DNA from: Pyrinomonadaceae bacterium
Lineage (GTDB): Bacteria > Acidobacteriota > Blastocatellia > Pyrinomonadales > Pyrinomonadaceae
Direction of reading: 5' to 3'
Assembly: GCA_045807785.1 (NCBI GenBank)
Contig: JBJMGS010000012.1
Coordinates: 1,039 to 65,038 of the forward strand
DNA length: 64,000 nt
How positions within the stretch are numbered: the first letter of the stretch is position 1; each line of letters opens with the position of its first letter. Shown piece after piece: positions 1,207 to 32,478 of this stretch. Below the pieces are notes generated by a model that saw only the letters and a program-made list of their open reading frames with translations, was not told the origin of the DNA and ran no database searches. A program made the translations under genes and the position numbers.

Positions 1207-3663
1207 ATGAGAACCATCTGGCAGGACATGCGCTACGGGCTGCGGGTGCTGTCGAGGCACCGTGGCTTCACGGCGGTCGCCGTGCTGACGCTCGCGCTCG
1301 GCATCGGCGCGAACACGGCGATCTTCAGCGCCGTCAACTCGGTGCTGCTGCGCGCGCTGCCTTACGCCGCGCCTGATCAACTCGTGTTGGCGTGGGAAGT
1401 GACGCCGAAGGGCAGGCAGACGACCGTCACGCCCGCGGACTTCCTCGACTGGCGCGCGCAAGCCGCTTCGTTCTCCGAGCTGGCGGCGACGAGCGGCGTC
1501 GATTTCACCGTCACGGACGAAGGCGAGCCGGCGCGCGTGCGCGGCGCGAGCGTCTCGACCAACTTCTTCCGGCTGCTCGGCACGAGCCCCGCGCTGGGGC
1601 GCACCTTCGATGGCGACGGCGCGACGGCGGGCGACTGGCACACGGTCGTCATCAGTCATAGTTTCTGGCAGAGCCGTTTCGGCGGCGACGCGGGCGTCGT
1701 CGGCAAGACGATAACGCTGAACGGCGCCGCCTATCAGATCGTCGGCGTCATGCCGCGCGAGTTCCGCTGGCAGAACCTCGCGCCGCTCTCGTCTGCGGGC
1801 GAGCTGGCGGAGTTGTTCGTCCCGGCGGTCAGGAAAGACATCCCGCAACTCGGCGCGCAGACGGATCGCGATCTCACGGCCAGCCGCAAGACGAGCTACA
1901 TGCGCGTCGTCGGGCGGATGAAGCCGAATGTGTCGCTCGCGCAGGCACAGTCGGAGATGGACGCCGTCGCGGCGCGGCTCGCCACGCAGTACCCGGAGAC
2001 GAACGCGGGCGCGGGCGTGCGGCTCATCCCGCTCAAGCGCTTCCTCGTCGGCGACTCGAGACCGGCGCTCTTGATGCTGCTCGCGGCGGTCGGGCTCGTG
2101 CTCCTGATCGCGTGCGCCAACGTCGCCAACCTCTTCCTCGCGCGCGCGACGACGCGGCGGAAGGAACTCGCCGTGCGCGCGGCCCTGGGCGCGGCGAGGG
2201 CGCGTCTCGTCCGCCAACTCCTGACCGAGAGTGTGCTGCTCTCGCTCGTGGCCGGAGGCGTCGGTCTGCTGTTCGCCGTGTGGGGCGTGCAGGGATTAGT
2301 TAGCTTATTGCCAAACGATCTGCCGCGCCTGAACGATGTTGCCATCGACGCGAACGTGCTGCTGTTCACGCTCGCCGTCTCCACCGTCACGGGGCTCGCC
2401 TTCGGGCTCGTCCCGGCGCTGCAAGTTTCGCGCGTCGATCTCACCGAGACGCTCAAGGAGGGCACGGGGAAGGCGACCGGCGCGCACGGGCGTTCGACCC
2501 GCGTGCTCATCGTCCTCGAAGTCGCCGTGTCGCTCGTGCTCCTCGTCGGCGCGGGGCTGCTCATCAAGAGCTTCGTCCTGCTCCAACAGGTCAAGCCCGG
2601 TTTCGACCCGAGCAAACTGCTCGCGCTCAACATCTCTCTGCCGCCGACGAAGTACGCCACGCCGAAAGAGAAGAGTCGCTTCTTCGAGCAGCTACTCGAA
2701 CGCATCAGAGCCGTGCCCGGCGTCAAGGATGCAGGCGCGGCGCTGAATCTTCCGTTTCCCGGCGACGACATTCTCTTTCCCCTCCGCGTCGAAGGCGAGC
2801 CCGAACCCGCACCCGGCGAAGTGAGTTCGATCAACTATCAGGTCGTCTCGCCCGACTACTTCCGCGCGATGCAGATTCCCCTGCTCGCCGGTCGCGACAT
2901 CAGCGACGCCGACCGCGCGGACGCGTCCGGAGTCGTCGTGTTGAACGAGGCGGCCGTCAAGCGTTATTTCGCGGGCGCAGACCCGCTCGGCAAGCGGATC
3001 AGATTGGGGTCGGACGACTCACCTCTGCTAACGGTCGTCGGCGTCGTGAACGACATCCGACAGCGCACGCTCGACGCGCCACCGAAGCCGGAGGCTTACG
3101 TCTCTTACCAGCAATCGCCCTTCGGCTTCATGGGCGTCGCCGTGCGCACCGAGGGCGATCCGGCGACCCTGACGGGTACGGTGCGCGGCGCGGTCGCGAA
3201 TCTGGACGCGCAAATCGTCTCGACCAACGTCCACACGATGAATGAGCTGATGTCCGAGTCGCTGGCGCGGCAGCGTTCCGTCTCGGTGCTGACCGGCGCG
3301 TTCGGCCTCGTTGCGCTCTTGCTCGCCTCGGTCGGCATCTACGGCGTCATCTCCTACATGGTGACGCAGCGGACGCGCGAGATCGGTATCCGCATCGCGC
3401 TCGGCGCGCGCGCGGGCGACGTGCTGCGCATGATCGTCGGCTACGGCATGGGGCTCACGCTGGTCGGCGTCGCGGCGGGGCTTGCCGCCTCGTTCGCGCT
3501 GACGCGGGCGATGTCGGGCCTGCTCTACGAAGTGAGTGCCTCCGATCCGCTGATCTACGTCGCGGTGGCGCTGCTGCTCTCGGCGGTCGCGCTCGTCGCG
3601 TGCCTTGTCCCGGCTCGCCGCGCGATGAGAGTCGATCCGATGGTGGCACTCCGGTACGAATGA
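1207..3663 (+). CDS. ADOP-type duplicated orphan ABC permease (MacB/FtsX-like)
   Basis: ATG at 1207 gives MRTIWQDMRYG, matching the paralog N-termini, with GAGGAA 6 nt upstream. [12 protein letters not shown]1 motif, two periplasmic domains each followed by FtsX-like TMs. Ends [10 protein letters not shown]-stop. Confidence 0.9.
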   Translation: MRTIWQDMRYGLRVLSRHRGFTAVAVLTLALGIGANTAIFSAVNSVLLRALPYAAPDQLVLAWEVTPKGRQTTVTPADFLDWRAQAASFSELAATSGVDFTVTDEGEPARVRGASVSTNFFRLLGTSPALGRTFDGDGATAGDWHTVVISHSFWQSRFGGDAGVVGKTITLNGAAYQIVGVMPREFRWQNLAPLSSAGELAELFVPAVRKDIPQLGAQTDRDLTASRKTSYMRVVGRMKPNVSLAQAQSEMDAVAARLATQYPETNAGAGVRLIPLKRFLVGDSRPALLMLLAAVGLVLLIACANVANLFLARATTRRKELAVRAALGAARARLVRQLLTESVLLSLVAGGVGLLFAVWGVQGLVSLLPNDLPRLNDVAIDANVLLFTLAVSTVTGLAFGLVPALQVSRVDLTETLKEGTGKATGAHGRSTRVLIVLEVAVSLVLLVGAGLLIKSFVLLQQVKPGFDPSKLLALNISLPPTKYATPKEKSRFFEQLLERIRAVPGVKDAGAALNLPFPGDDILFPLRVEGEPEPAPGEVSSINYQVVSPDYFRAMQIPLLAGRDISDADRADASGVVVLNEAAVKRYFAGADPLGKRIRLGSDDSPLLTVVGVVNDIRQRTLDAPPKPEAYVSYQQSPFGFMGVAVRTEGDPATLTGTVRGAVANLDAQIVSTNVHTMNELMSESLARQRSVSVLTGAFGLVALLLASVGIYGVISYMVTQRTREIGIRIALGARAGDVLRMIVGYGMGLTLVGVAAGLAASFALTRAMSGLLYEVSASDPLIYVAVALLLSAVALVACLVPARRAMRVDPMVALRYE

Positions 3664-3810: not shown

Positions 3811-6264
3811 ATGAGCACGCTCTTACAGGATTTGAGGTTCGGCGCGCGGATGCTGATGAAGAACCCGGGCTTCGCGCTGGTGGCCGTCACAACTTTGGCG
3901 CTCGGCATCGGGGCGAACACGGCGATCTTCTCGGTCGTCCACGCGGTCTTGCTGAAGCCCCTGCCGTTTACGTCTTCGGAGCGACTGGTCGCGCTGGGGC
4001 AGACAGAGCCGCGCAACCGCACTGCCCTGTCAAACTTCTCCTTCCGCAACTTCGCAGACCTGAGAGAGCAGAACAGATCGTTCGAGCGCCTCGCCGCCTA
4101 CTACGACAAGAACGTGACGCTCACGGGCCAGGGCGAGTCCGCGCTTCTACGCTCGACCGTCATCACGTCCGATCTGTTTCCGCTGCTCGGGGCAGCGCCG
4201 GCGCTGGGTCGCGCTTTTCTCCCTGAAGAAGACAAGGCGGGGGGCGGCGGCGTGGGGCGTCCCGCCATGCTGAGCTGGGACTGCTGGCGGCAGCGCTTTG
4301 GCGGCGACACGGGCGTGGTCGGACGCGCCGTGACGCTCGACGGCGAGAGCTACACGGTCGTCGGCGTCATGCCGGCGCAGTTCGCTTTCCCCGTCGAAGC
4401 GCAGCCGACGGAAGTGTGGCTCTCGACCGCGCTCGACTCTGAAAAAACGGGCGACGGCTCGATCATGATCGCCCGCGGCTACCGTGCGTGGAGAGTGATC
4501 GGGCGACTCAAGCCCGGCGTCACATTAGAGCAGGCGCAGGCGGAAGCCGAAGTGATCGGATCGAGCCTCGCGTCGCAATACCCCGATGTGAATGAGGAGA
4601 TGGGCATCCGCGCCATGCCGCTGCTCGAATCTCTGGTCGGGAGCCTGCGCCTCATCCTGCTGCTGCTCTTCGTGACGGTCGGCGTCGTCCTTCTGATCGC
4701 GTGCGTCAACGTGGCGAACCTGCTGCTCGAACGCGCCGTCAGCCGTCAGCGCGAGATCAACATCCGCCTGGCGCTCGGCGCGAGCCGCTGGCGCATCACG
4801 CGGCAGCTCGTGACCGAGAGCTTGCTGCTCGCGCTGGCGGGCGGGGTTGCCGGGACGATACTGGCGATGTGGGGCACGGACCTGATCATCTCTCTGAGCC
4901 CACAAGGTATCGCCCGCATCACGGAGACGCGCCTCGACGCGGGCGTGCTCGCCTTCACGGCTGCGGTCTCGGTTCTGACCGGCGTGCTCTTCGGTCTCGC
5001 GCCTGCGTTCACGGTCGCGGGGACGAGTCTGTCGGAGGCACTGAAGGATGGCGGACGAAGCTCTTCGGGGGGACTGTTGTCGGGCAGCGCGCGGGGACTG
5101 CTCGTCGTCGCACAGGTCTCGATGGCGCTCGTGCTTTTGGTCGGGGCGGGGCTCTTGATTAAGAGCCTCGTGCGCCTGCAAAAAGTCGAGCTGGGGTTTG
5201 ACCCGCGAAACATCCTGACCCTGAAGGTTGCGAAAACGTCTGACCCTTCAAGAAACACGCAACAGCTCAGCGCCTTCTACCAGCAGGTTACGGAACGAGT
5301 CAGAACGCTGCCGGGCGTGGTCGCGGCAAGCGTCGTCTTCCAACCGCCCTTAAGCGGCGAGGCAGCCACCACCGGGCTGGCGGTAGAGGGGGACGCAGAA
5401 GGGTCGGGCGACCGCCTTTCCGTCGTCATCCACACGGTCGGGACGGATTACTTCCGCACGATGGGCATCCCCGTCATGAGGGGGCGCGAGTTCGGCGCGC
5501 ACGACGACCTGAACTCGACGCCCGCGATCATCATCAACGAGACGCTGGCGCGCAGGGTCTTCCCCGGCGAAGACCCGATCGGAAAACGCATCCGGCCCTC
5601 TTGGTCACCGACCGGTCAGTACGTTATGCGCGAGATCGTCGGCGTCGTGGGCGACGTGCGGCACCGCGGGTTGCAGGCGGACGTGCAGCCCGAAATCTTC
5701 TTCGCGCAGGCGCAGGTGCCCATGCCCACGATGACGGTCGTCGCTCGCACCACAGGGGACGCGCGCGCCATCGCCGACGCGGCGCGCAGGGAGATTCAGT
5801 CGCTCGACAAAGACGCCCCCGTCTATCGCGTCCTGACCGTCGAGGAACTCCTCTCGCGCTCGCTCGCCTCCTCGCGCTTCAACATGACGCTGCTCGCAGC
5901 CTTCGCGGGCGTGGCGCTGCTGCTGACGGCGGTGGGGCTCTACGGCGTGGTCTCGTTCACGGTGAGCCAGTCCACGCATGAGATCGGGATACGGATGGCA
6001 CTGGGCGCGCAGACCTCCGACGTGCTGAAGCTGGTTCTGGGGCAGGGAATGGCGCTGGCAGCTGTGGGGGTCATCGTCGGCTTGGGGGCTTCATACGGGT
6101 TGACGCGGCTGATGTCGGGTCTGCTCTTCGGCGTCGGCGCGACCGACCGCGTGACCTTCGGCGCGGTCACGGTGCTGCTCCTGGCAGTGGCAGCGCTGGC
6201 CTGCTACATCCCGGCGCGGCGCGCAACGAAGGTGGACCCGATGGAGGCGCTGAGGTACGAGTGA
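3811..6264 (+). CDS. ADOP-type duplicated orphan ABC permease
   Basis: ATG at 3811 ([11 protein letters not shown]) with GAGGG 8 nt upstream. Same architecture as the paralogs. Ends [11 protein letters not shown]-stop. Confidence 0.9.
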
Positions 6265-6415: not shown

Positions 6416-8842
6416 ATGGGCACACTCTTTCAAGACGTTCGTTATGGGCTGCGGGGCCTGCGCCACAACTTGGCGTTCACGCTTGTCGCGGTCTGTTCGC
6501 TGGCGCTCGGGATCGGGGCGAACACGGCGATCTTCAGTCTCGTCAACGCCGTGCTCTTGCAGCCGCCGCCGTTTCGCGATCCCTCACGCCTCGTGATGCT
6601 CTGGGAAGATCAACCCGCGATCGGCGTCACGCGGGATCAGGTGCAGCCCGCGACCTATGCCGAATGGAAGTCGCAGAATCAGGTCTTCGAAGACATGGCG
6701 GCGCTACGCTGGCAGACCTTCAACATCACCGGCGACGGCGAGCCGGAGAAGGTGCAGTCTTACGGCGTGACGAGGAACTTCCTGCCGCTGCTCGGCGCAG
6801 AGCCCGCGCTCGGTCGAAACTTTCTGCCCGAAGAAGACCAGCCCGGGGGCGCGAAAGTCGTCATCCTCAGCCACGGCTTGTGGCAGCGCCGCTACGGCAG
6901 AGATCAGAACATCGTCGGCAGAGAGATTCTCTTGAACGGCGAGAAGCGCACCGTCGTCGGCGTGATGCCCGCCGGCTTCCAGTTCTTGCAAAGCACGACG
7001 GGGCTCTGGACGCCCGCCGCCTTTACGCCCGACGAACTTGCCACACGTGACAGCAATACGCTGCTCGTCGTCGGTCGGCTTAAACCCGGCGTGACGCGGC
7101 AGCAGGCGCAGGCCGACATGGGCGCGATCACCGAACGCCTCGCGCACGACTACCCCGAAGACCTCGCGGGCATTCAAGCGAACGTCCTGCCGTTGGGCGA
7201 GCAACTGTCGGGCGCAGTCCGGCAGCCCCTGCTGATCCTGCTCGCGGCGGTCGGCTTCGTCCTCCTCATCGCGTGTGCGAACGTGGCGAACCTGCTTTTG
7301 GCGCGCGCCGCCTCGCGCCGCAAAGAGATTGCCGTGCGCGTGGCGCTCGGTGCAAGTCGTTGGCGCATCGTGCGGCAACTTTTGACCGAGAGCGTGCTGC
7401 TCTCTCTGCTCGGCGGGGCGCTCGGCCTCTTGCTCGCCGCGTGGGGCTTCGAGTTCATGAAGAAGCTCATCCCCGACGGGCTCGTGCTCTCGGCGAGCCT
7501 GCGCCTCAGCCTGCCCGTGCTCGGCTACGCAGCGCTCATCTCGCTCGCGACGGGCGTTGTCTTCGGGCTCGCCCCGGCGTGGCAGGCGTCGCGCGCTGAT
7601 CTCAACGACGCGCTCAAGCAGGGCGGCGGTCGCGGCGGCTCGGCGGCGGGCGGGCGTCTGCGCGGCGCACTCGTCGTGCTGGAAGTCGCGCTCGCACTGG
7701 TGCTGCTCGTCGGCGCGGGGCTGCTCGTGCAGACCGTCTCGCACATGCGCGGGCAGTACGCGAGTCTGAAACCGCAGCAGTTGCTGACGGTGCGCACGGT
7801 GTTGCCCGATTACAAGTACGGCTCGCTTCCCAAACGCGCGCAGTTTTACGACGAGGTGTTAGAGCGCGTGCGACAACTGCCCGGCGTCGTTGCGGTCGGC
7901 TACACGACCTCCGTGCCTCTGCAGTGGCAGGGCGGCGCGAACGGATTCATGATCGAGGGCACGCAGCTTCCGCCCGGCACGGCGGCGAACGCCATCCACC
8001 GACAAGTGAGCGCGAACTATTTGCAGACCGTCGGCCTCGCGCTGCGCGAGGGTCGCTACCTCGACGAGCACGACGGCGCACAGTCGCAGTTCGTCGTCGT
8101 CGTCAACGAGAAGATGGCGCGGCAGTACTGGCCGGGCGAGAGCGCCGTCGGCAAGCGGATCAGCTTCGGCATGGGAAAGGGGACGCCTCCGTGGCGCACC
8201 ATCGTCGGCGTCGTGGCCGACGTGCGCGACATGGGGATGGACGCGCCGGTCAAGGCGGAGATGTATCTGCCTTACAGTCAGGTGGCGGGGTTCAACGGCT
8301 TCAAGCCGCGCGATCTCGTCGTCCGCACGGAGGGCGATCCGCTGAGCCTCGCCGCCGCCGTGCGTCGCGAAGTCCACGCCGTCGATCCGGACGAGCCCGT
8401 CTCGAACGTCGCCACGATGGCGGAGCAGTTGAGCGACGAGACCGGCACGCGCGGCATCGGCATGGTCTTGCTCGCGTCGTTCGCTGGCCTTGCGCTGCTG
8501 CTCGCCACGATCGGGATTTACGGGGTGCTCGCCTATTTCGTCACGCAGCACGTGCCGGAGATCGGTGTGCGGCTCGCCCTCGGCGCGCAGCCGCGCGACA
8601 TCCTCGCGCTCGTCTTAAAGCAGGGGATGGCGCTCGCGCTCGGCGGCGTCGCGGTCGGCCTGGCGGCGTCCTTCGCGCTGACGCGGCTGATGTCCGGCTT
8701 GCTCTTCGGCGTCTCGGCGACCGACCCGAAAACTTTCGCGCTCATCTCCCTGTTCATCGCGGCGGTCGCCCTCGTCGCCTGCTACATCCCCGCGCGCCGC
8801 GCGATGAGAGTCGATCCGATGATCGCGTTGAGGTACGAGTGA
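6416..8842 (+). CDS. ADOP-type duplicated orphan ABC permease
   Basis: ATG at 6416 gives MGTLFQDVRYG (a GTG at 6413 is also possible), with GAGG upstream. Ends [11 protein letters not shown]-stop. Confidence 0.9.
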   Translation: MGTLFQDVRYGLRGLRHNLAFTLVAVCSLALGIGANTAIFSLVNAVLLQPPPFRDPSRLVMLWEDQPAIGVTRDQVQPATYAEWKSQNQVFEDMAALRWQTFNITGDGEPEKVQSYGVTRNFLPLLGAEPALGRNFLPEEDQPGGAKVVILSHGLWQRRYGRDQNIVGREILLNGEKRTVVGVMPAGFQFLQSTTGLWTPAAFTPDELATRDSNTLLVVGRLKPGVTRQQAQADMGAITERLAHDYPEDLAGIQANVLPLGEQLSGAVRQPLLILLAAVGFVLLIACANVANLLLARAASRRKEIAVRVALGASRWRIVRQLLTESVLLSLLGGALGLLLAAWGFEFMKKLIPDGLVLSASLRLSLPVLGYAALISLATGVVFGLAPAWQASRADLNDALKQGGGRGGSAAGGRLRGALVVLEVALALVLLVGAGLLVQTVSHMRGQYASLKPQQLLTVRTVLPDYKYGSLPKRAQFYDEVLERVRQLPGVVAVGYTTSVPLQWQGGANGFMIEGTQLPPGTAANAIHRQVSANYLQTVGLALREGRYLDEHDGAQSQFVVVVNEKMARQYWPGESAVGKRISFGMGKGTPPWRTIVGVVADVRDMGMDAPVKAEMYLPYSQVAGFNGFKPRDLVVRTEGDPLSLAAAVRREVHAVDPDEPVSNVATMAEQLSDETGTRGIGMVLLASFAGLALLLATIGIYGVLAYFVTQHVPEIGVRLALGAQPRDILALVLKQGMALALGGVAVGLAASFALTRLMSGLLFGVSATDPKTFALISLFIAAVALVACYIPARRAMRVDPMIALRYE

Positions 8843-28756: not shown

Positions 28757-29518
28757 TTGGACGTCAGGGCGTATCTCGAACGCATCAACTACCGAGGCTC
28801 GCTTGAGCCAAGGGCAGAGACCTTGCGCGGGTTGCATTTGGCGCACCTGCTGACAGTGCCTTTCGAGAATCTGAGTATTCACGCGGGCGAGCCGATCATT
28901 CTTGAAGACGAAGCTCTCTTTAACAAGATCGTCGAGCGTCGGCGCGGCGGCTTCTGCTACGAAGCCAACGGCCTGTTTGCCGCTTTGTTGCGGGCACTCG
29001 GCTTCGACGTGGCGATGCTCTCAGCCGAAGTGGCGCGGGCGGGAGGCGGCTTTGGTCCGGCCTTCGATCATATGACGCTGCTGGTGACTTTAGAACAGCG
29101 TTGGCTCGTCGATGTCGGCTTCGGTGATTCGTTTCGCGAGCCGTTAAGGCTCGATGAGAGGGGCGAGCAAATCCATGACGGTCGCGCCTACGCCGTCCGT
29201 CCCGACGGCTCTTTCCTGGTGCTGTTGCAGCGAAGTCATGACAAAGGTGAGTGGGAGGCTCAGTATCGCTTTACTCTAGAGCCCCACGAGTATGCTGACT
29301 ATGCCGAGATGTGCCTCTACCACCAAACATCTCCGGAGTCGCATTTCACCAGAGCGCGTATCTGTTCGAGGGCCACAGAGGAGGGACGCATCACGCTCAG
29401 TGAGATGCGTCTGATCGACACCTCGCGAGACGGCGGGCGACAAGAGCGCTCCTTAACGAGTCCGGCAGAGTACGCACAGATATTGCAACACCATTTTGGC
29501 ATCGTCATGACGGGATGA
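28757..29518 (+). CDS. Arylamine N-acetyltransferase
   Basis: YLERINY...VPFENLSIH. Catalytic Cys context RGGFCYEANGLF, His context FDHMTLLV, Asp context WLVDVGFGD. In-frame TTG at 28757 follows AGGAAAAGGA; the ORF-track start at 28628 would overlap the PilZ gene. Confidence 0.8.
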   Translation: MDVRAYLERINYRGSLEPRAETLRGLHLAHLLTVPFENLSIHAGEPIILEDEALFNKIVERRRGGFCYEANGLFAALLRALGFDVAMLSAEVARAGGGFGPAFDHMTLLVTLEQRWLVDVGFGDSFREPLRLDERGEQIHDGRAYAVRPDGSFLVLLQRSHDKGEWEAQYRFTLEPHEYADYAEMCLYHQTSPESHFTRARICSRATEEGRITLSEMRLIDTSRDGGRQERSLTSPAEYAQILQHHFGIVMTG

Positions 29519-29720
29519 TGCGACCTGACGACGGCGCCACCACGGTTTTTCCACACGATCGCATTTCACTCCAAGCACCTAGTCTGATTCAAGGCGAATC
29601 CGATAAAAGTGACACCTCATTTCCTGCACACTGTCTGGGTCGGATAACGAATCTTATGGTCATATGGGCTTTGCGGGCTTAGTCACGCTTGCAGGGAAAG
29701 TCTGCAACTTGCGTGGAAAG

Positions 29721-31592
29721 TCAGATCAGGTTTTTACCGATGAGAAATTCTCTCGCCTTGTCTGTGAGTTGGTAGTCGGGTTCGCCCGTCACGCGATGGA
29801 TGCTATTGAAAAAGACGTAATCCGCCGCTCTCAGAGCGTCAAGGTGGTATTTGACTCTCTCAATATGCATCTGCGTCTCCCGCGCGATTGCCGACGGGTA
29901 TCTATTACTAACCAAGCTGGCTATTACGGCAAGAATGGCAAGTTTCGCATCGTCAATAATGTCATGCCCCGTCGGAAAAGGGACTATGCGATTAGGTTTC
30001 TTGAGGAAATCGCTGCCCTTCGGCTTGAGTCGGTAATACGAGCCGCGATTTTCAAGTTCTTGAAGTTCAATGTAGTCATGCTGATTCAATAGCGATAAAG
30101 AGATGCCGACTTGAACGGGATTTAATTTTAGAGCCTCCGCGATTTGAGATTCATAACCATTCCCTTTGGCAATCTCTTTGAGGGTTTCAATGGCCGTTTT
30201 ATCAGGCTTGTAATCAGCGGGCGCAGGTGGGGGATATGGAGGAACTTTATAGTTAGTCAGAGTGTCGTCACCTTTTTTAGTGAGTTCGGAGTAAGGGGCG
30301 GCGTTCGCTGGCTGATGCCAAACGATGTAGCCGTACCTCTCCAGCAGTAAAAGGTACAGTCTGATTAGTTCTTCTTTGAAGCCTAAGCCGACGGCGAGTA
30401 TGGAGTCGTATTTATTGCCGATCTTTATGTGGTGGAGGATTTTCTTGGCTGTTTCGTCAGGTTCGTAATCGTCGGGCTCTTGCGTCGGGGGTTGATGAAC
30501 TTTATAGCCGAACTCGTTGACGTACACACGCCCTGTGCCGGTGATTAGGTAACGCTTAATGACATCGGAGGATTGATCTCTGCGAATTAGTTTGCGCCAT
30601 TCTAGCAGGCGCAAAGCCCTTCCGACTTGCTTATGTTCTAGCTTTAGGGTTCTGGCGAGTTGGTAGTCCTCGCCTATGCCTTCGTTAATTTTCGTGAGGA
30701 CTTTGATAGCCGTTTCGTCGAGTGGGTCTTTAGCGGAAGGGTAAGGGACTTCGTAATCTTGCTCGTAAAGATGTTTCTTCCCTCTCTCTGTGAGGTCGTA
30801 GAAGCCCGATTCGTCGGGAGATAGGCAGTCATATTTTACCAATGCGTCAAAGCGTTCTTGGATTTCGTAAGGCTTACGCCCGAATGCATCCGCGATTTCA
30901 TCAAGCGAGAAACGGCTACCAGCATTCGCCACGAGCCTCAGCATATTGATCAGTGGGTTGTCGGGTATGAACGCATCTTGCTCGTGAGGTTGAGAGGTAG
31001 CCCCTTTTTGAAGTTGCTTAGGCGGATCGGTTTTAGCCTCAACTTCCTTCGGGCTTTCGGAAGGTTCGTAGGTCTTTATGAAATTCAGCGCGCCGCTAAG
31101 GGCAATGCGAAAGACTTCGGGCGGGCAGAACAGCTCCTTAGTTTGTGAAATCTGCCAGCCGCTATTAGCGCCTTCCCAGCCGATGTTTGAAACGTGCCTT
31201 CTGAGTTCACTTTGCGGTATGCGGAAAGGCGAAAGGTCTTCGTGAATCTCAGCCTGAACAGTATCGAGTGTGGCGTGATAGTCGTTAAAGTAAGTTTCGC
31301 TCAAGTCCGCCGTTGAGAGGTGATCATAAATAGATTGTAGGCGGATAACAGCTTTGCGCAGCGTTGGGTTCTTTGGTAATGCCGAAATCTGCGGCGAGTT
31401 ATCCGCGGCAGCGGACTTACTCCAATTAATGGCGAAGATAGGAGCAAGGATTACAGCGACTAACGAAAAGAATGTACCTGCAATGAGGTAGTACTCAGCA
31501 TAAATACCATGACCACCATTAGTAAGCTGATTGTTAATCGCAAAGCAAATGCCGGCGAGCGCCAAGAGAATGGTGATAATAGCTGTACGCAT
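29721..31592 (-). CDS. Membrane-anchored protein with five tandem winged-helix-like modules, unknown function (low-GC island)
   Basis: 623-codon ORF in a 45-52 % GC stretch. Two N-terminal TM helices. Five modules of about 85-87 residues, each of the form (D/K)(E/K)TA(I/K)..L..I...helix-turn-helix-like...Y.LT..G, separated by YxVPxPP-type proline linkers. Confidence 0.75.
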   Translation of the reverse strand: MRTAIITILLALAGICFAINNQLTNGGHGIYAEYYLIAGTFFSLVAVILAPIFAINWSKSAAADNSPQISALPKNPTLRKAVIRLQSIYDHLSTADLSETYFNDYHATLDTVQAEIHEDLSPFRIPQSELRRHVSNIGWEGANSGWQISQTKELFCPPEVFRIALSGALNFIKTYEPSESPKEVEAKTDPPKQLQKGATSQPHEQDAFIPDNPLINMLRLVANAGSRFSLDEIADAFGRKPYEIQERFDALVKYDCLSPDESGFYDLTERGKKHLYEQDYEVPYPSAKDPLDETAIKVLTKINEGIGEDYQLARTLKLEHKQVGRALRLLEWRKLIRRDQSSDVIKRYLITGTGRVYVNEFGYKVHQPPTQEPDDYEPDETAKKILHHIKIGNKYDSILAVGLGFKEELIRLYLLLLERYGYIVWHQPANAAPYSELTKKGDDTLTNYKVPPYPPPAPADYKPDKTAIETLKEIAKGNGYESQIAEALKLNPVQVGISLSLLNQHDYIELQELENRGSYYRLKPKGSDFLKKPNRIVPFPTGHDIIDDAKLAILAVIASLVSNRYPSAIARETQMHIERVKYHLDALRAADYVFFNSIHRVTGEPDYQLTDKAREFLIGKNLI

Positions 31593-31731
31593 TCACGCTT
31601 TCACTCTGTCCCTGTGCACTATTACCTGCTCGGAATGCTCGCCGCATTCGAGTTCGGCTGCGGAAGCCCTAAGCTTTGAATTGGTATATACCTAACTATG
31701 CCTGTCCACGCAAGGCGGGTCATGACGCACG

Positions 31732-32478
31732 CTATATCTCGATCTTTGAGAACCGCCATGCGCCCAAGCCGAGCAGGAGGGCCGCCACGACGGCGAGCGC
31801 AACAAGGTCGAAGCTGACGCCGAAGTGAGTCAGGCCGGTCAGCGCCCCGCGCATGCCATCCACGCCGTAGGTCAAAGGATCGATTCTCGTCAGCGCCGCG
31901 AGCACCTTCGGCAAGTTCGCGAGCGGGTAGAGCGCGCCGGAGAGGAAGAAGATCGGCATCACCATGAAGTTCATGATGAGCTGAAAGCCCTGCATGTCCT
32001 TCAGACTCGATCCGAGCGTTGTGCCGAGCGCCGCGAAGACGACAGCGGTCAGCATCATCACGAGGATGGCCGTCGGCAGGCCGAGCAAGCCGACCGGGCG
32101 GAAGCCCGCGACGAGACTGACGAGGAAGATCAGTAAGCCTTGTAGCATCGCGACGGTCGCGCCGCCGAGAGTTCGCCCGACCATGATCCAGAGGCGCGGG
32201 ACGGGCGCCACCAAAGTCTCCTTCAGAAACCCGAACTGCCGATCCCACAGCAGCGCGATCCCCGAAAACATCGAAGTGAAGAGCACCGTCATCCCGATCA
32301 CGCCCGGCGCCATGAACTGTAGATAGTTCCCCTCGCCTGCGCGCTGGAAGACAGGCCCCAACCCGAAGCCGAGCACGCCGAGATACATCAAAGGCGAGCC
32401 GAGCGACGCGATCATCTGCGTCCGCGAGCGCAGGTACTTCTTCACCTCGCGCAGCCAGAGTATGTAGATGACCCTCAT
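31732..32478 (-). CDS. ABC-2 type transporter permease
   Basis: Start MRVIYILWLREVKKYLRSRTQ at 32478 forms an ATGA overlap with the upstream ATPase stop. Six predicted TM segments. The ORF-track N-terminal extension is Arg/His-rich and lies inside the ATPase gene. Confidence 0.85.
   Translation of the reverse strand: MRVIYILWLREVKKYLRSRTQMIASLGSPLMYLGVLGFGLGPVFQRAGEGNYLQFMAPGVIGMTVLFTSMFSGIALLWDRQFGFLKETLVAPVPRLWIMVGRTLGGATVAMLQGLLIFLVSLVAGFRPVGLLGLPTAILVMMLTAVVFAALGTTLGSSLKDMQGFQLIMNFMVMPIFFLSGALYPLANLPKVLAALTRIDPLTYGVDGMRGALTGLTHFGVSFDLVALAVVAALLLGLGAWRFSKIEI

Follow-up and report, generated by a model that had tools for sequence, protein, structure and literature searches.

What does a bacterial protein do that carries five winged-helix (WH) modules in a row and holds them at a membrane? 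This question is raised by a gene at positions 29721–31592, on the minus strand, of a stretch of 64,000 nucleotides from a Pyrinomonadaceae bacterium (assembly GCA_045807785.1, contig JBJMGS010000012.1, positions 1,039–65,038), referred to here as the window. An earlier note on this DNA, made by reading the sequence, had left the architecture unplaced. We compared the gene and its product with sequence, profile and structure collections, and found the architecture to be real, unusual and largely uncharacterised. Judged by these comparisons, the protein would most likely be a rare kind of one-protein bacterial immune sensor. The most informative features, all missing from the earlier note, are a domain here called X, the mosaic evolution of the gene and a repeat array that flanks it.

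The open reading frame (ORF) is intact and complete, from its ATG start to the stop codon at 29721–29723. The 623-residue product is a 100% match to the NCBI entry ‘MAG: hypothetical protein ACJ741_00730 [Pyrinomonadaceae bacterium]’ (MAG, metagenome-assembled genome), and consists of two transmembrane (TM) helices, X, a linker and five WH modules, in that order. The TM segments were called by Kyte-Doolittle hydropathy. TM1 covers residues 1–23 (31524–31592, minus strand, as for all parts of the gene given below; hydropathy >1.6 in 19-residue windows) and TM2 residues 32–56 (31425–31499; hydropathy up to 2.43). In an AlphaFold2 (AF2) model of the full protein, built on an alignment of eight family sequences and with a mean per-residue confidence (pLDDT) of 74, the two appeared as a helical hairpin (helices 2–25 and 29–62). 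Hydropathy and model thus bear out the pair of N-terminal TM helices described earlier. The loop between TM1 and TM2, of 8–10 residues, contains no Lys or Arg, and K59, K74, R79 and K80 follow TM2. Because of this K/R-rich flank, a cytoplasmic C-terminus is expected; the positive-inside rule predicts that both termini, X and all WH modules are cytoplasmic, which would put the modules at the inner face of the membrane, as the earlier note had supposed for the case of a cytoplasmic N-terminus. The region of about 170 residues after the helices had been described simply as soluble. It is made up of the compact domain X (residues ~73–181) and a disordered linker (pLDDT <50 for residues 178–206), acidic and Pro-rich, that was assigned to residues 182–210 (30963–31049).

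Start motifs at residues 211, 292, 379, 464 and 547 confirmed the five tandem modules of the earlier note, with lengths of 81, 87, 85, 83 and 77 residues. The Pro-rich linkers that it had seen between them are present, and were modelled as disordered with low confidence. A family of direct repeats in the DNA (D1) has spacings of 255 and 261 nt, equal to 85 and 87 codons. By BLASTP, modules 2, 3 and 4 matched one another with E values of 1e-5 to 5e-10, and module 5 matched module 4 with 8e-4. Module 1 had no significant match to the other modules (best E 0.11), and was assigned as a winged helix because of its matches to winged helix-turn-helix (wHTH) profiles and its AF2 model, not because of BLASTP. 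The Pfam family HTH_45 (PF14947) gave 36.8 bits against a cut-off of 25.5, with the best stretch at residues 469–535 in module 4; other Pfam matches of the wHTH type, below threshold, had their best stretches on modules 1, 2 and 5, and the PADLOC CasR model spanned residues 356–423 in module 3. The order helix-helix-helix-strand-strand-helix was modelled by AF2 in all the five modules, at pLDDT ~80–88. The best Foldseek matches in the PDB were TFIIIC tauB (1.5e-7), SelB WH1–4 (6e-6) and ScpB (5.6e-5), followed by RPC62/RPC34 and UFL1/DDRGK1, with the MarR-type proteins ZitR and FabT among the weaker ones. As Pfam, AF2 and Foldseek all agree, the winged-helix identity proposed in the earlier note is upheld; by fold and profile, the five modules are genuine winged-helix folds of the wHTH superfamily.

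The modules differ in charge. Module 1 (residues 211–291; 30720–30962) is acidic, with an isoelectric point (pI) of 4.6, and matches PADLOC WH_III-A at residues 223–279; its modelled elements are helices 212–223, 230–236, 241–253 and 269–280 and strands 257–259 and 265–267. Module 2 (residues 292–378; 30459–30719), also modelled by AF2, is basic (pI 9.7) and has Csa3, CasR and PRTase_III-A wHTH matches at 283–380. Module 3 (residues 379–463; 30204–30458) was delimited by AF2 and by BLASTP against modules 2 and 4, and module 4 (residues 464–546; 29955–30203) is the one with HTH_45 above the gathering threshold. Module 5 (residues 547–623; 29724–29954), seen by Pfam and AF2, is of the C-terminal type found family-wide, Y.LT.KAR.FLI..NLI. 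In a charge analysis, a basic recognition helix and wing were found in one of the five, module 2; modules 3–5 carry a net charge of 0, with neither Lys nor Arg in the recognition helix PVQVGISLSLLNQ of module 4. The picture of five DNA-binding modules that tether DNA to the membrane is therefore doubtful, because modules 1 and 3–5 are acidic or neutral. In sequence, the modules are nearest to the wHTH domains of the CRISPR-associated Csa3, CasR and WH_III-A proteins.

Domain X (31050–31376), delimited by profile search and AF2, is the best-conserved part of the family, with near-invariant residues H106, F123 and C156. An AF2 model from a 72-sequence alignment (pLDDT 90.4, pTM 0.77) showed an alpha/beta fold in which three helices pack on a long beta-hairpin. 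Foldseek gave this fold no significant neighbour, whether from the PDB (best E 1.6) or from BFVD (best E 0.25), and the sequence of X gave zero matches in the PDB. Pfam placed no family over X in the query or in any of the 150 best X proteins, and seven family members that were searched with PADLOC, NCBIfam and PHROGs showed nothing on it either. That X is a degenerate winged helix was ruled out: the hhalign probability was 0.7%, against 99.9% for a WH-versus-WH control, and there were zero WH structures among its Foldseek PDB matches. When a profile of X (A1) was run against 1.84 billion cluster representatives, 567 proteins passed a threshold of E ≤ 1e-3, of which 114 also passed E ≤ 1e-10. 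Among the 150 best of the 567, 80 are stand-alone proteins of ~110–145 residues, 29 have a C-terminal extension after X, 16 have TM segments before X (six with a Zn-ribbon), 16 join X to WH modules and eight carry another N-terminal domain.

The partners of X were then considered. In the same 150 proteins Pfam found TIR_2 (6), SEFIR (3), dCMP_cyt_deam_1 (2), Hypoth_Ymh (1) and GGDEF (1). PADLOC models matched bSEFIR (7e-65, 1e-50 and 4e-30), a ThsB-type TIR (3.5e-48), PD-Lambda-3_B/Aga_HEPN (3.5e-13) and a PDC-M14B-like C-terminus (3e-9); these effector models match the relatives across the effector domain alone, not over the full length. Within the family that joins X to WH modules, the N-terminal hairpin of two TM helices is present in 11 members, in two of them with an added Zn-ribbon. 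Other members carry an enzyme-type domain. P0013 is HNH-X-2WH, and PADLOC models of CBASS-type endonuclease effectors match its N-terminal part (PDC-M68A 1.7e-31, Effector endonuclease 3.3e-22, SAVED_HNH 1.5e-19). P0007 is dCMP_cyt_deam_1-X-2WH, with a RibD/dCMP-deaminase fold at its N-terminus, and P0018 is TIR_2-WH-X. Downstream of P0007, a gene that is cut by the end of its contig opens with an HNH domain of the P0013 type (locus L006, 1607–1807); hence, two siblings with different effectors appear to stand in tandem. The family also varies in the number of WH modules (1–5), in the copies of X (1–2) and in module order. A constant chassis on which a TM module and enzymatic killing domains replace one another is a hallmark of prokaryotic conflict systems, and it is mainly because of this swap of TM hairpin, HNH, deaminase and TIR on the chassis of X and WH modules that we infer a defence-like function. 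The link to defence against foreign DNA, suggested in the earlier note, gains support from the same swaps and from the proteins in which X is joined to a bSEFIR, ThsB or HEPN-type domain.

A full-length orthologue, P0002 (63% identity), lies on a 105-kb JGI contig (L001). Amino acid identity and the rates of synonymous (dS) and nonsynonymous (dN) change between the two genes were computed region by region according to Nei and Gojobori. X has 97% identity, with dS 0.06 and dN/dS 0.21, and the TM region 85%, 0.25 and 0.29. For the linker the values are 65%, 1.09 and 0.21; for module 1, 47%, 1.02 and 0.47; for module 2, 49%, 0.74 and 0.58; and for module 3, 72%, 0.37 and 0.46. In modules 4 and 5 (48% and 39% identity) dS is saturated, with proportions of synonymous differences (pS) of 0.79 and 0.80, and dN/dS is not applicable. 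Third-position identity in a sliding window of 20 codons was 0.90–1.00 over residues 41–180, 0.40–0.70 over 181–380, 0.65–0.95 over 381–460 and 0.25–0.50 over 461–623, with sharp breakpoints near residues ~40, ~180, ~380 and ~460. In this alignment TM2 and X are near-identical to P0002 even at synonymous sites, and module 3 appears to have been common to the query and the L001 orthologue recently. The spread of dS within the gene goes beyond what constraint at the protein level can give, and therefore points to recombination with several breakpoints. The closest relatives of module 4 are a module of P0010 (74%) and one of P0015 (68%), the positional counterpart in P0002 falling outside the five best; module 5 is 43% identical to a module of P0003 against 39% for P0002. 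In HsdS of type I restriction-modification (R-M) systems, recombination swaps the target-recognition domains and leaves the constant regions almost unchanged. Our protein is like HsdS in that X is constant and the WH modules form a variable mosaic, but the proteins are unrelated and there are up to five modules here.

The gene stands in a block of low GC content (~0.44–0.52; 29520–31715), which was found by composition and lies between convergent gene ends. Its GC content is 0.49, against 0.64 in the flanks, and the GC content at third codon positions is 0.44–0.60, where the genes next to it have 0.67 and 0.87. It forms an insert of ~2 kb among housekeeping genes, between two convergent units, an ABC-2 transporter operon and an arylamine N-acetyltransferase. 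P0002 is likewise in a block of ~2 kb (GC 0.48) in a genome of GC 0.62 to 0.65, at an unrelated site, and DNA homology between the window and L001 is restricted to 31604–29719, that is, from 12 nt upstream of the ATG through the stop. By composition and by these limits of homology, the gene was acquired horizontally as a low-GC insert. A full-length search gave eight clusters among 5.8 billion. A profile scan of 185,579 GTDB species representatives found no member of the close X subfamily. With a pattern search one related cassette came to light, that of P0061 (TM-ZnR-X), in a second MAG from the Pyrinomonadaceae. The homologs are thus rare accessory genes in these searches and not the widespread housekeeping genes that would have refuted the earlier proposal.

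The reading that we favour, and to which we give slightly less than an even chance, is that of a single-chain sensor-effector of a defence-like (conflict-system) kind, mobile as a cassette of one gene. The TM hairpin would insert in the inner membrane, keep both of its ends on the cytoplasmic side and fill the effector slot, which in siblings is taken by an HNH nuclease, a cytidine-deaminase-fold or a TIR domain. X would be the constant module for coupling or oligomerisation, common to many other effector fusions. The WH string, on its flexible Pro-rich linkers, would be the variable recognition part, for a ligand derived from the invader, nucleic acid or protein, and its specificity would be diversified by recombinational exchange of whole WH modules among family members. 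Binding of the ligand would lead to assembly through X, and in the TM version to perturbation of the membrane (abortive infection or exclusion); the hairpin would be the output, or at least a localiser. We regard as doubtful a wider form of the proposal, in which such proteins would make up a new class of one-protein immune receptor, where X, of novel fold, links swappable killers (TM, HNH, TIR, SEFIR, deaminase or HEPN) to a WH string, module exchange is combinatorial and the one-gene cassette is marked by a 3′ array.

Several points weigh against a sensor-effector of this kind. The window locus is not a defence island. Sensing of nucleic acid is uncertain, because four of the five modules have no basic recognition surface. 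The TM hairpin shows no similarity to known pore-forming effectors (the top Pfam holin match has E 0.86), and could serve as a mere anchor. The argument from domain association draws on ~17 family members, mostly on short metagenomic contigs. PADLOC-DB v2 has no full-length system model that matches the query, which gave local wHTH matches alone. X itself is not exclusively associated with defence, because two of the three stand-alone X genes that were examined sit in heat-shock loci, namely P0156 (L014–L016) in the order hrcA-grpE-hsp20-X-268aa-dnaK and P0121 (L011–L013) in the order groES-groEL-X, followed by a Macro-domain gene. X may thus have a role related to stress or proteostasis.

Some further features of X proteins were observed. 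P0057 (L007–L010) is a stand-alone X (7001–7372) in a type I R-M operon with the order hsdM (N6_Mtase)-DUF4145-X-hsdS (Methylase_S), and LexA is encoded just upstream. Many of the stand-alone proteins (within P0020–P0070) end, beyond a variable linker, in a conserved tail ...(K/R)x(I)GF, for example GKPPIGF, KRIIGFSS or RHIGF, which resembles a docking peptide. A recurrent type of ~280 residues (P0080, P0100, P0106, P0111, P0114, P0118, P0122, P0135, P0145 and P0153) has X followed by a conserved C-terminal region of ~170 residues, with the motifs DYWSM..LE.LA..Y.I.GYGD... and GS.IQQG and a hydrophobic tail. This region matches PADLOC PDC-M14B (3e-9) and AbiTi (7e-3) weakly.

Known anti-phage proteins of modular build that swap effectors include bSEFIR, ThsB-type TIR and CBASS Cap5-type HNH proteins, and the TM effectors of CBASS, Pycsar and type III CRISPR. 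The present family is like them in that siblings and cousins join these effector domains to X, the N-terminal slot is filled in some by a TM hairpin and in others by an enzymatic killer, as is typical of such systems, and the genes with X and WH modules are rare, patchy and horizontally moved. Unlike them, the query has neither a cyclic-nucleotide sensor (SAVED, CARF or CNB) nor an NTPase, and the sensor would be the WH array with X. By its sequence, the protein can be likened to effector-swapping single-protein defence systems, yet fits none of them. No description of this architecture or of domain X was found in a literature search. The closest sequence relatives of single modules are the wHTH domains of Csa3, CasR and WH_III-A, and the archaeal-type wHTH families HTH_45 (Pfam), Sso10a and Lrs14. 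Csa3 and other CARF-wHTH regulators differ from the query, which lacks CARF and has five tandem copies on a membrane anchor; the matches covered just the C-terminal wHTH part of the profiles, for example positions 131–193 of 197 and 136–189 of 202, and scored 26.7 against an NCBIfam cut-off of 60.2.

The gene is followed by a repeat array. Directly after the stop codon, on the minus strand at 29667–29720, lie three copies of a motif (motif A) at spacings of 20 and 18 nt: copy 1, CTTTCCACGCAAG, at 29708–29720; copy 2, CTTTCCCTGCAAG, at 29688–29700, 7 nt beyond copy 1; and copy 3, degenerate and ending in GCAAAGCC, at 29667–29682, 5 nt beyond copy 2. The motif, allowing two mismatches or fewer, has three matches in the whole window, two of which are in this array. 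Arrays of motif A, with three direct repeats of ~13 nt at spacings of 20 and 18–19 nt, were found in six X-family loci in the same orientation, and start 1–28 nt after the stop codons of X-family genes. Besides the window, they lie at L002 6140–6190, L018 1993–2043, L024 1443–1500, L029 (reverse-complemented) 1684–1740 and L033 6785–6839 (minus strand). The genes followed by the array include P0008 (L002) and P0015 (L018), whose products are merely ~30–40% identical to the query. The arrays of L024, L029 and L023 came from a scan of metagenomes by sequence only, and that of L033 (P0061) from a genome scan; the array of L023 is the one case that stands behind an unrelated gene, of the P63C type. 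On folding, the array of L002 gave no structure (z +1.05) and that of the window a weak one (z −2.5). Long tandem arrays with a 20-nt unit (GACTTTCCCTGCAGTCCGCT-like), in L019–L022, L025–L028 and L030–L032, have the core of motif A and the 20-nt period in common with it. These period-20 satellites account for 11 of the 14 matches that the motif pattern gave in metagenomes; they were set aside as satellites or iterons that probably have no relation to it.

We also considered the 3′ repeats as binding sites of the WH modules themselves. P0008, P0015 and the L024 protein have three WH modules beside three copies, yet the copies stay three whatever the number of modules. An identical array follows P0061 of L033, which is without WH modules, and this candidate was rejected in its strict form; the array is probably not a WH-specific operator, because it also stands behind a gene that lacks them. 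It may be a recombination site, an element of the 3′-UTR or a site bound by some protein.

A second flanking motif (motif B), CTTGCCCAACAG / CTGTTGGGCAAA, was found in L001, L004 and L005, and contains RYYYAAC/GTTRRRY, which is the consensus of the integron attC boxes. Its sites are L001 9581–9642, 9934–9985 and 11901–11951, L005 2484–2545 and L004 ~3220–3290; in L001 and L005 they form strong imperfect hairpins (z −5.1, −5.4 and −3.7). The L001 sites bracket an ORF of 62 residues with a TM segment and then P0002, so that the locus resembles a two-cassette array, with at most two cassette-like units. Downstream of the window gene there is no RYYYAAC/GTTRRRY pair. An integron integrase was found neither among the immediate neighbours in the window, the rest of which was unscanned, nor within 10 kb in L001. 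In L002, where the array is of motif A, a second motif cluster lies beyond an adjacent DDE transposase.

Upstream of the gene, at 31699–31714, is an inverted copy of the first array unit, 88% complementary to 29708–29723, at the upstream edge of the GC dip (the pair is called I5). That I5 represents the conserved ends of an element was not supported, as the homology with L001 stops at the coding sequence. In the remaining motif-A loci, nothing like motif A was found upstream, in L018, L024 and L033 on little or no available sequence; the inverted copy may be due to chance. The hexamer ATGACC (minus strand) closely flanks the low-GC insert on either side, at 31718–31723, 3 nt before the upstream inverted-repeat arm, and at 29658–29663, 3 nt after the end of GCAAAGCC. 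The pair is a candidate target-site duplication, with a probability of ~2% by chance, and could be chance. For the comparison with an empty site, a close homolog of the N-acetyltransferase, P0172, was located on a 138-kb contig; it lacks the downstream synteny, and no empty site was obtained.

BRiCs are phage-defence integron cassettes (Kieffer et al., bioRxiv 10.1101/2024.07.02.601719). Like integron cassettes and BRiCs, the window locus has a single promoter-proximal ORF of foreign composition with a repeat behind it, and the cargo is defence-like; in L001 and L005 the repeat is a hairpin with RYYYAAC...GTTRRRY ends, a candidate attC site. Unlike them, the 3′ element in the window is the weakly folding array of direct repeats, and no cassette array was seen in the window.

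Close by in the window there are also genes for a PAS histidine kinase, for a PilZ protein and for a sortilin/BNR protein. Across the loci compared, no partner gene is universally conserved. The earlier statement that partner genes are absent holds for the window, but some relatives adjoin a gene of XRE type or a small Zn-ribbon ORF. The XRE-type helix-turn-helix protein, with 44–51% identity among loci, is encoded near the family gene at L001 12680–12970, L004 3495–3788 (minus strand) and L005 737–1087, and a second XRE type, at 39% identity, is common to L004 and L005; in the window no homolog of the XRE-type protein was found (tblastn best E 0.41). The Zn-ribbon ORF (WG[FY]RCERCEHEW[IV]PRD..EPRVCPKCKSPYWN[RK]PRR) lies directly upstream of the family gene in L002 (~4662–4850) and L018 (1–190); the source annotation has no gene call for it, and the window does not carry it. 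Other neighbours of relatives are mobile or defence-like in character: a DDE transposase, IstB, a UPF0175 antitoxin, an MmeI_C fragment (1.4e-6) and a caspase, Peptidase_C14 (3.4e-36). In L003, P0003 appears to stand between a 66-residue N-terminal fragment (1617–1817, identified by eye) and a 149-residue C-terminal fragment (3110–3559) of an MmeI-like R-M enzyme, the latter with 28.9 bits for Pfam MmeI_C against a cut-off of 27. This suggests that P0003 was inserted into a defence gene. An Rfam scan of 29300–31900 found no RNA family, a scan for promoters and terminators gave nothing above the expectation from shuffled sequence, and there are no tRNA genes in the window.

Other explanations of the protein have to be weighed against the sensor-effector. 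It might be a membrane-anchored DNA-binding protein, that is, a plasmid or chromosome tether, a trap for foreign DNA, or a sequestered multi-site regulator released or activated on a signal. The WH folds, which by model and profile are genuine, the basic recognition helix and wing of module 2 and the label ‘DNA-binding MarR family transcriptional regulator’ that JGI gives to P0002 and P0006 all speak for it, as do the direct repeats beside the gene, spaced by 20 nt and reminiscent of the iterons or operators of tandem-WH Rep proteins. The label is misleading, because the architecture is entirely different: MarR proteins share the wHTH fold, but are homodimers of ~150 residues with one wHTH and dimerisation helices, where the query has 623 residues, five modules, TM helices and X, and MarR/MarR_2 stayed below threshold (MarR_2 E 0.013, 16 bits against 27). 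The iteron-binding plasmid initiators RepA, RepE and pi have WH1-WH2 and adjacent direct repeats spaced by ~20 bp, so that the likeness lies in tandem WH modules encoded beside two to three direct repeats at 18–20 nt. Here, however, the array also follows a WH-less gene and is probably no WH operator, origin features are absent, and no significant Rep family was found in Pfam, NCBIfam or PHROGs (best PHROG ‘replication initiation protein’, E 0.19, for P0002). A membrane-bound regulator of the ToxR/CadC type fits no better, as the order is reversed (TM first), an extracytoplasmic loop of ~8–10 residues leaves no periplasmic sensor domain, and there is no Trans_reg_C match. With modules 1, 3, 4 and 5 acidic or neutral, the recognition helix of module 4 devoid of basic residues, and siblings with nuclease, deaminase or TIR domains that a tether or regulator would not need, we think DNA binding at the membrane unlikely. 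The neutral or acidic charge of most modules is in keeping with a membrane-anchored protein-protein scaffold, in which the WH beads bind proteins and X binds a partner, perhaps in proteostasis or stress, with no direct role in immunity. WH domains act as protein-interaction beads in ScpB, ESCRT-II, cullins, RPC62 and TFIIIC, and WH arrays that do not bind DNA (ScpB, RPC62/RPC34, UFL1/DDRGK1) are among the best structural matches. SelB WH1–4, ScpB, TFIIIC tau138, RPC62/RPC34 and UFL1/DDRGK1 are like the query in being strings of 2–7 WH domains (Foldseek 1.5e-7 to 1e-3), but at 10–20% identity they have no sequence relationship to it, none is membrane-anchored or has X, and all have housekeeping roles in the cytosol or nucleus, with RNA, kleisin, Pol III or the ribosome as binding partner. 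The groESL and hrcA-grpE-hsp20-dnaK loci and the docking-peptide-like ...IGF tail of many stand-alone X proteins also agree with a scaffold. It leaves unexplained, however, why X is fused to domains of the bSEFIR, ThsB, HEPN, HNH and deaminase types, as well as the extreme rarity, the horizontal acquisition at low GC and the cassette-like exchange of modules, and seems to us equally improbable.

Less probable still is that the gene is cargo of a selfish element and serves the mobile cassette itself, in maintenance, competitor exclusion or addiction, the repeat arrays being sites of recombination or transposition. The 3′ array conserved after the stop in six loci, the second cluster past the DDE transposase in L002, the motif-B hairpins of L001 and L005 and the two-cassette appearance of L001 are all in keeping with this, and so is the contig of P0013, on which, by eye, ParA- and Rep-like genes appear to lie (the putative Rep, of 452 residues, has no Pfam match). 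Yet no integrase or transposase was found close to the window gene, and 10 kb around in L001 have none either, except IstB ~7 kb away; the L002 array is unfolded, no inverted upstream copy of motif A appears elsewhere as far as the sequence extends, and an empty site was not found. Moreover, cargo status would account for mobility and not for the function of the protein, and is compatible with the sensor-effector.

If the sensor-effector reading is true, X, with its 567 representatives and no Pfam family or structural neighbour, would be a new domain associated with defence and a handle for finding further immune proteins through guilt by fusion. One sensor chassis behind outputs as different as membrane anchor, nuclease, deaminase and TIR domain would also be an accessible test case. 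Even without an immune function, the membrane-tethered array of five WH modules with its novel domain would be an unplaced architecture in the poorly studied Acidobacteriota. If the reading holds, prokaryotic immunity would have a new route to diversity of recognition, akin to that of HsdS, in which whole WH modules are shuffled in place of point mutation.

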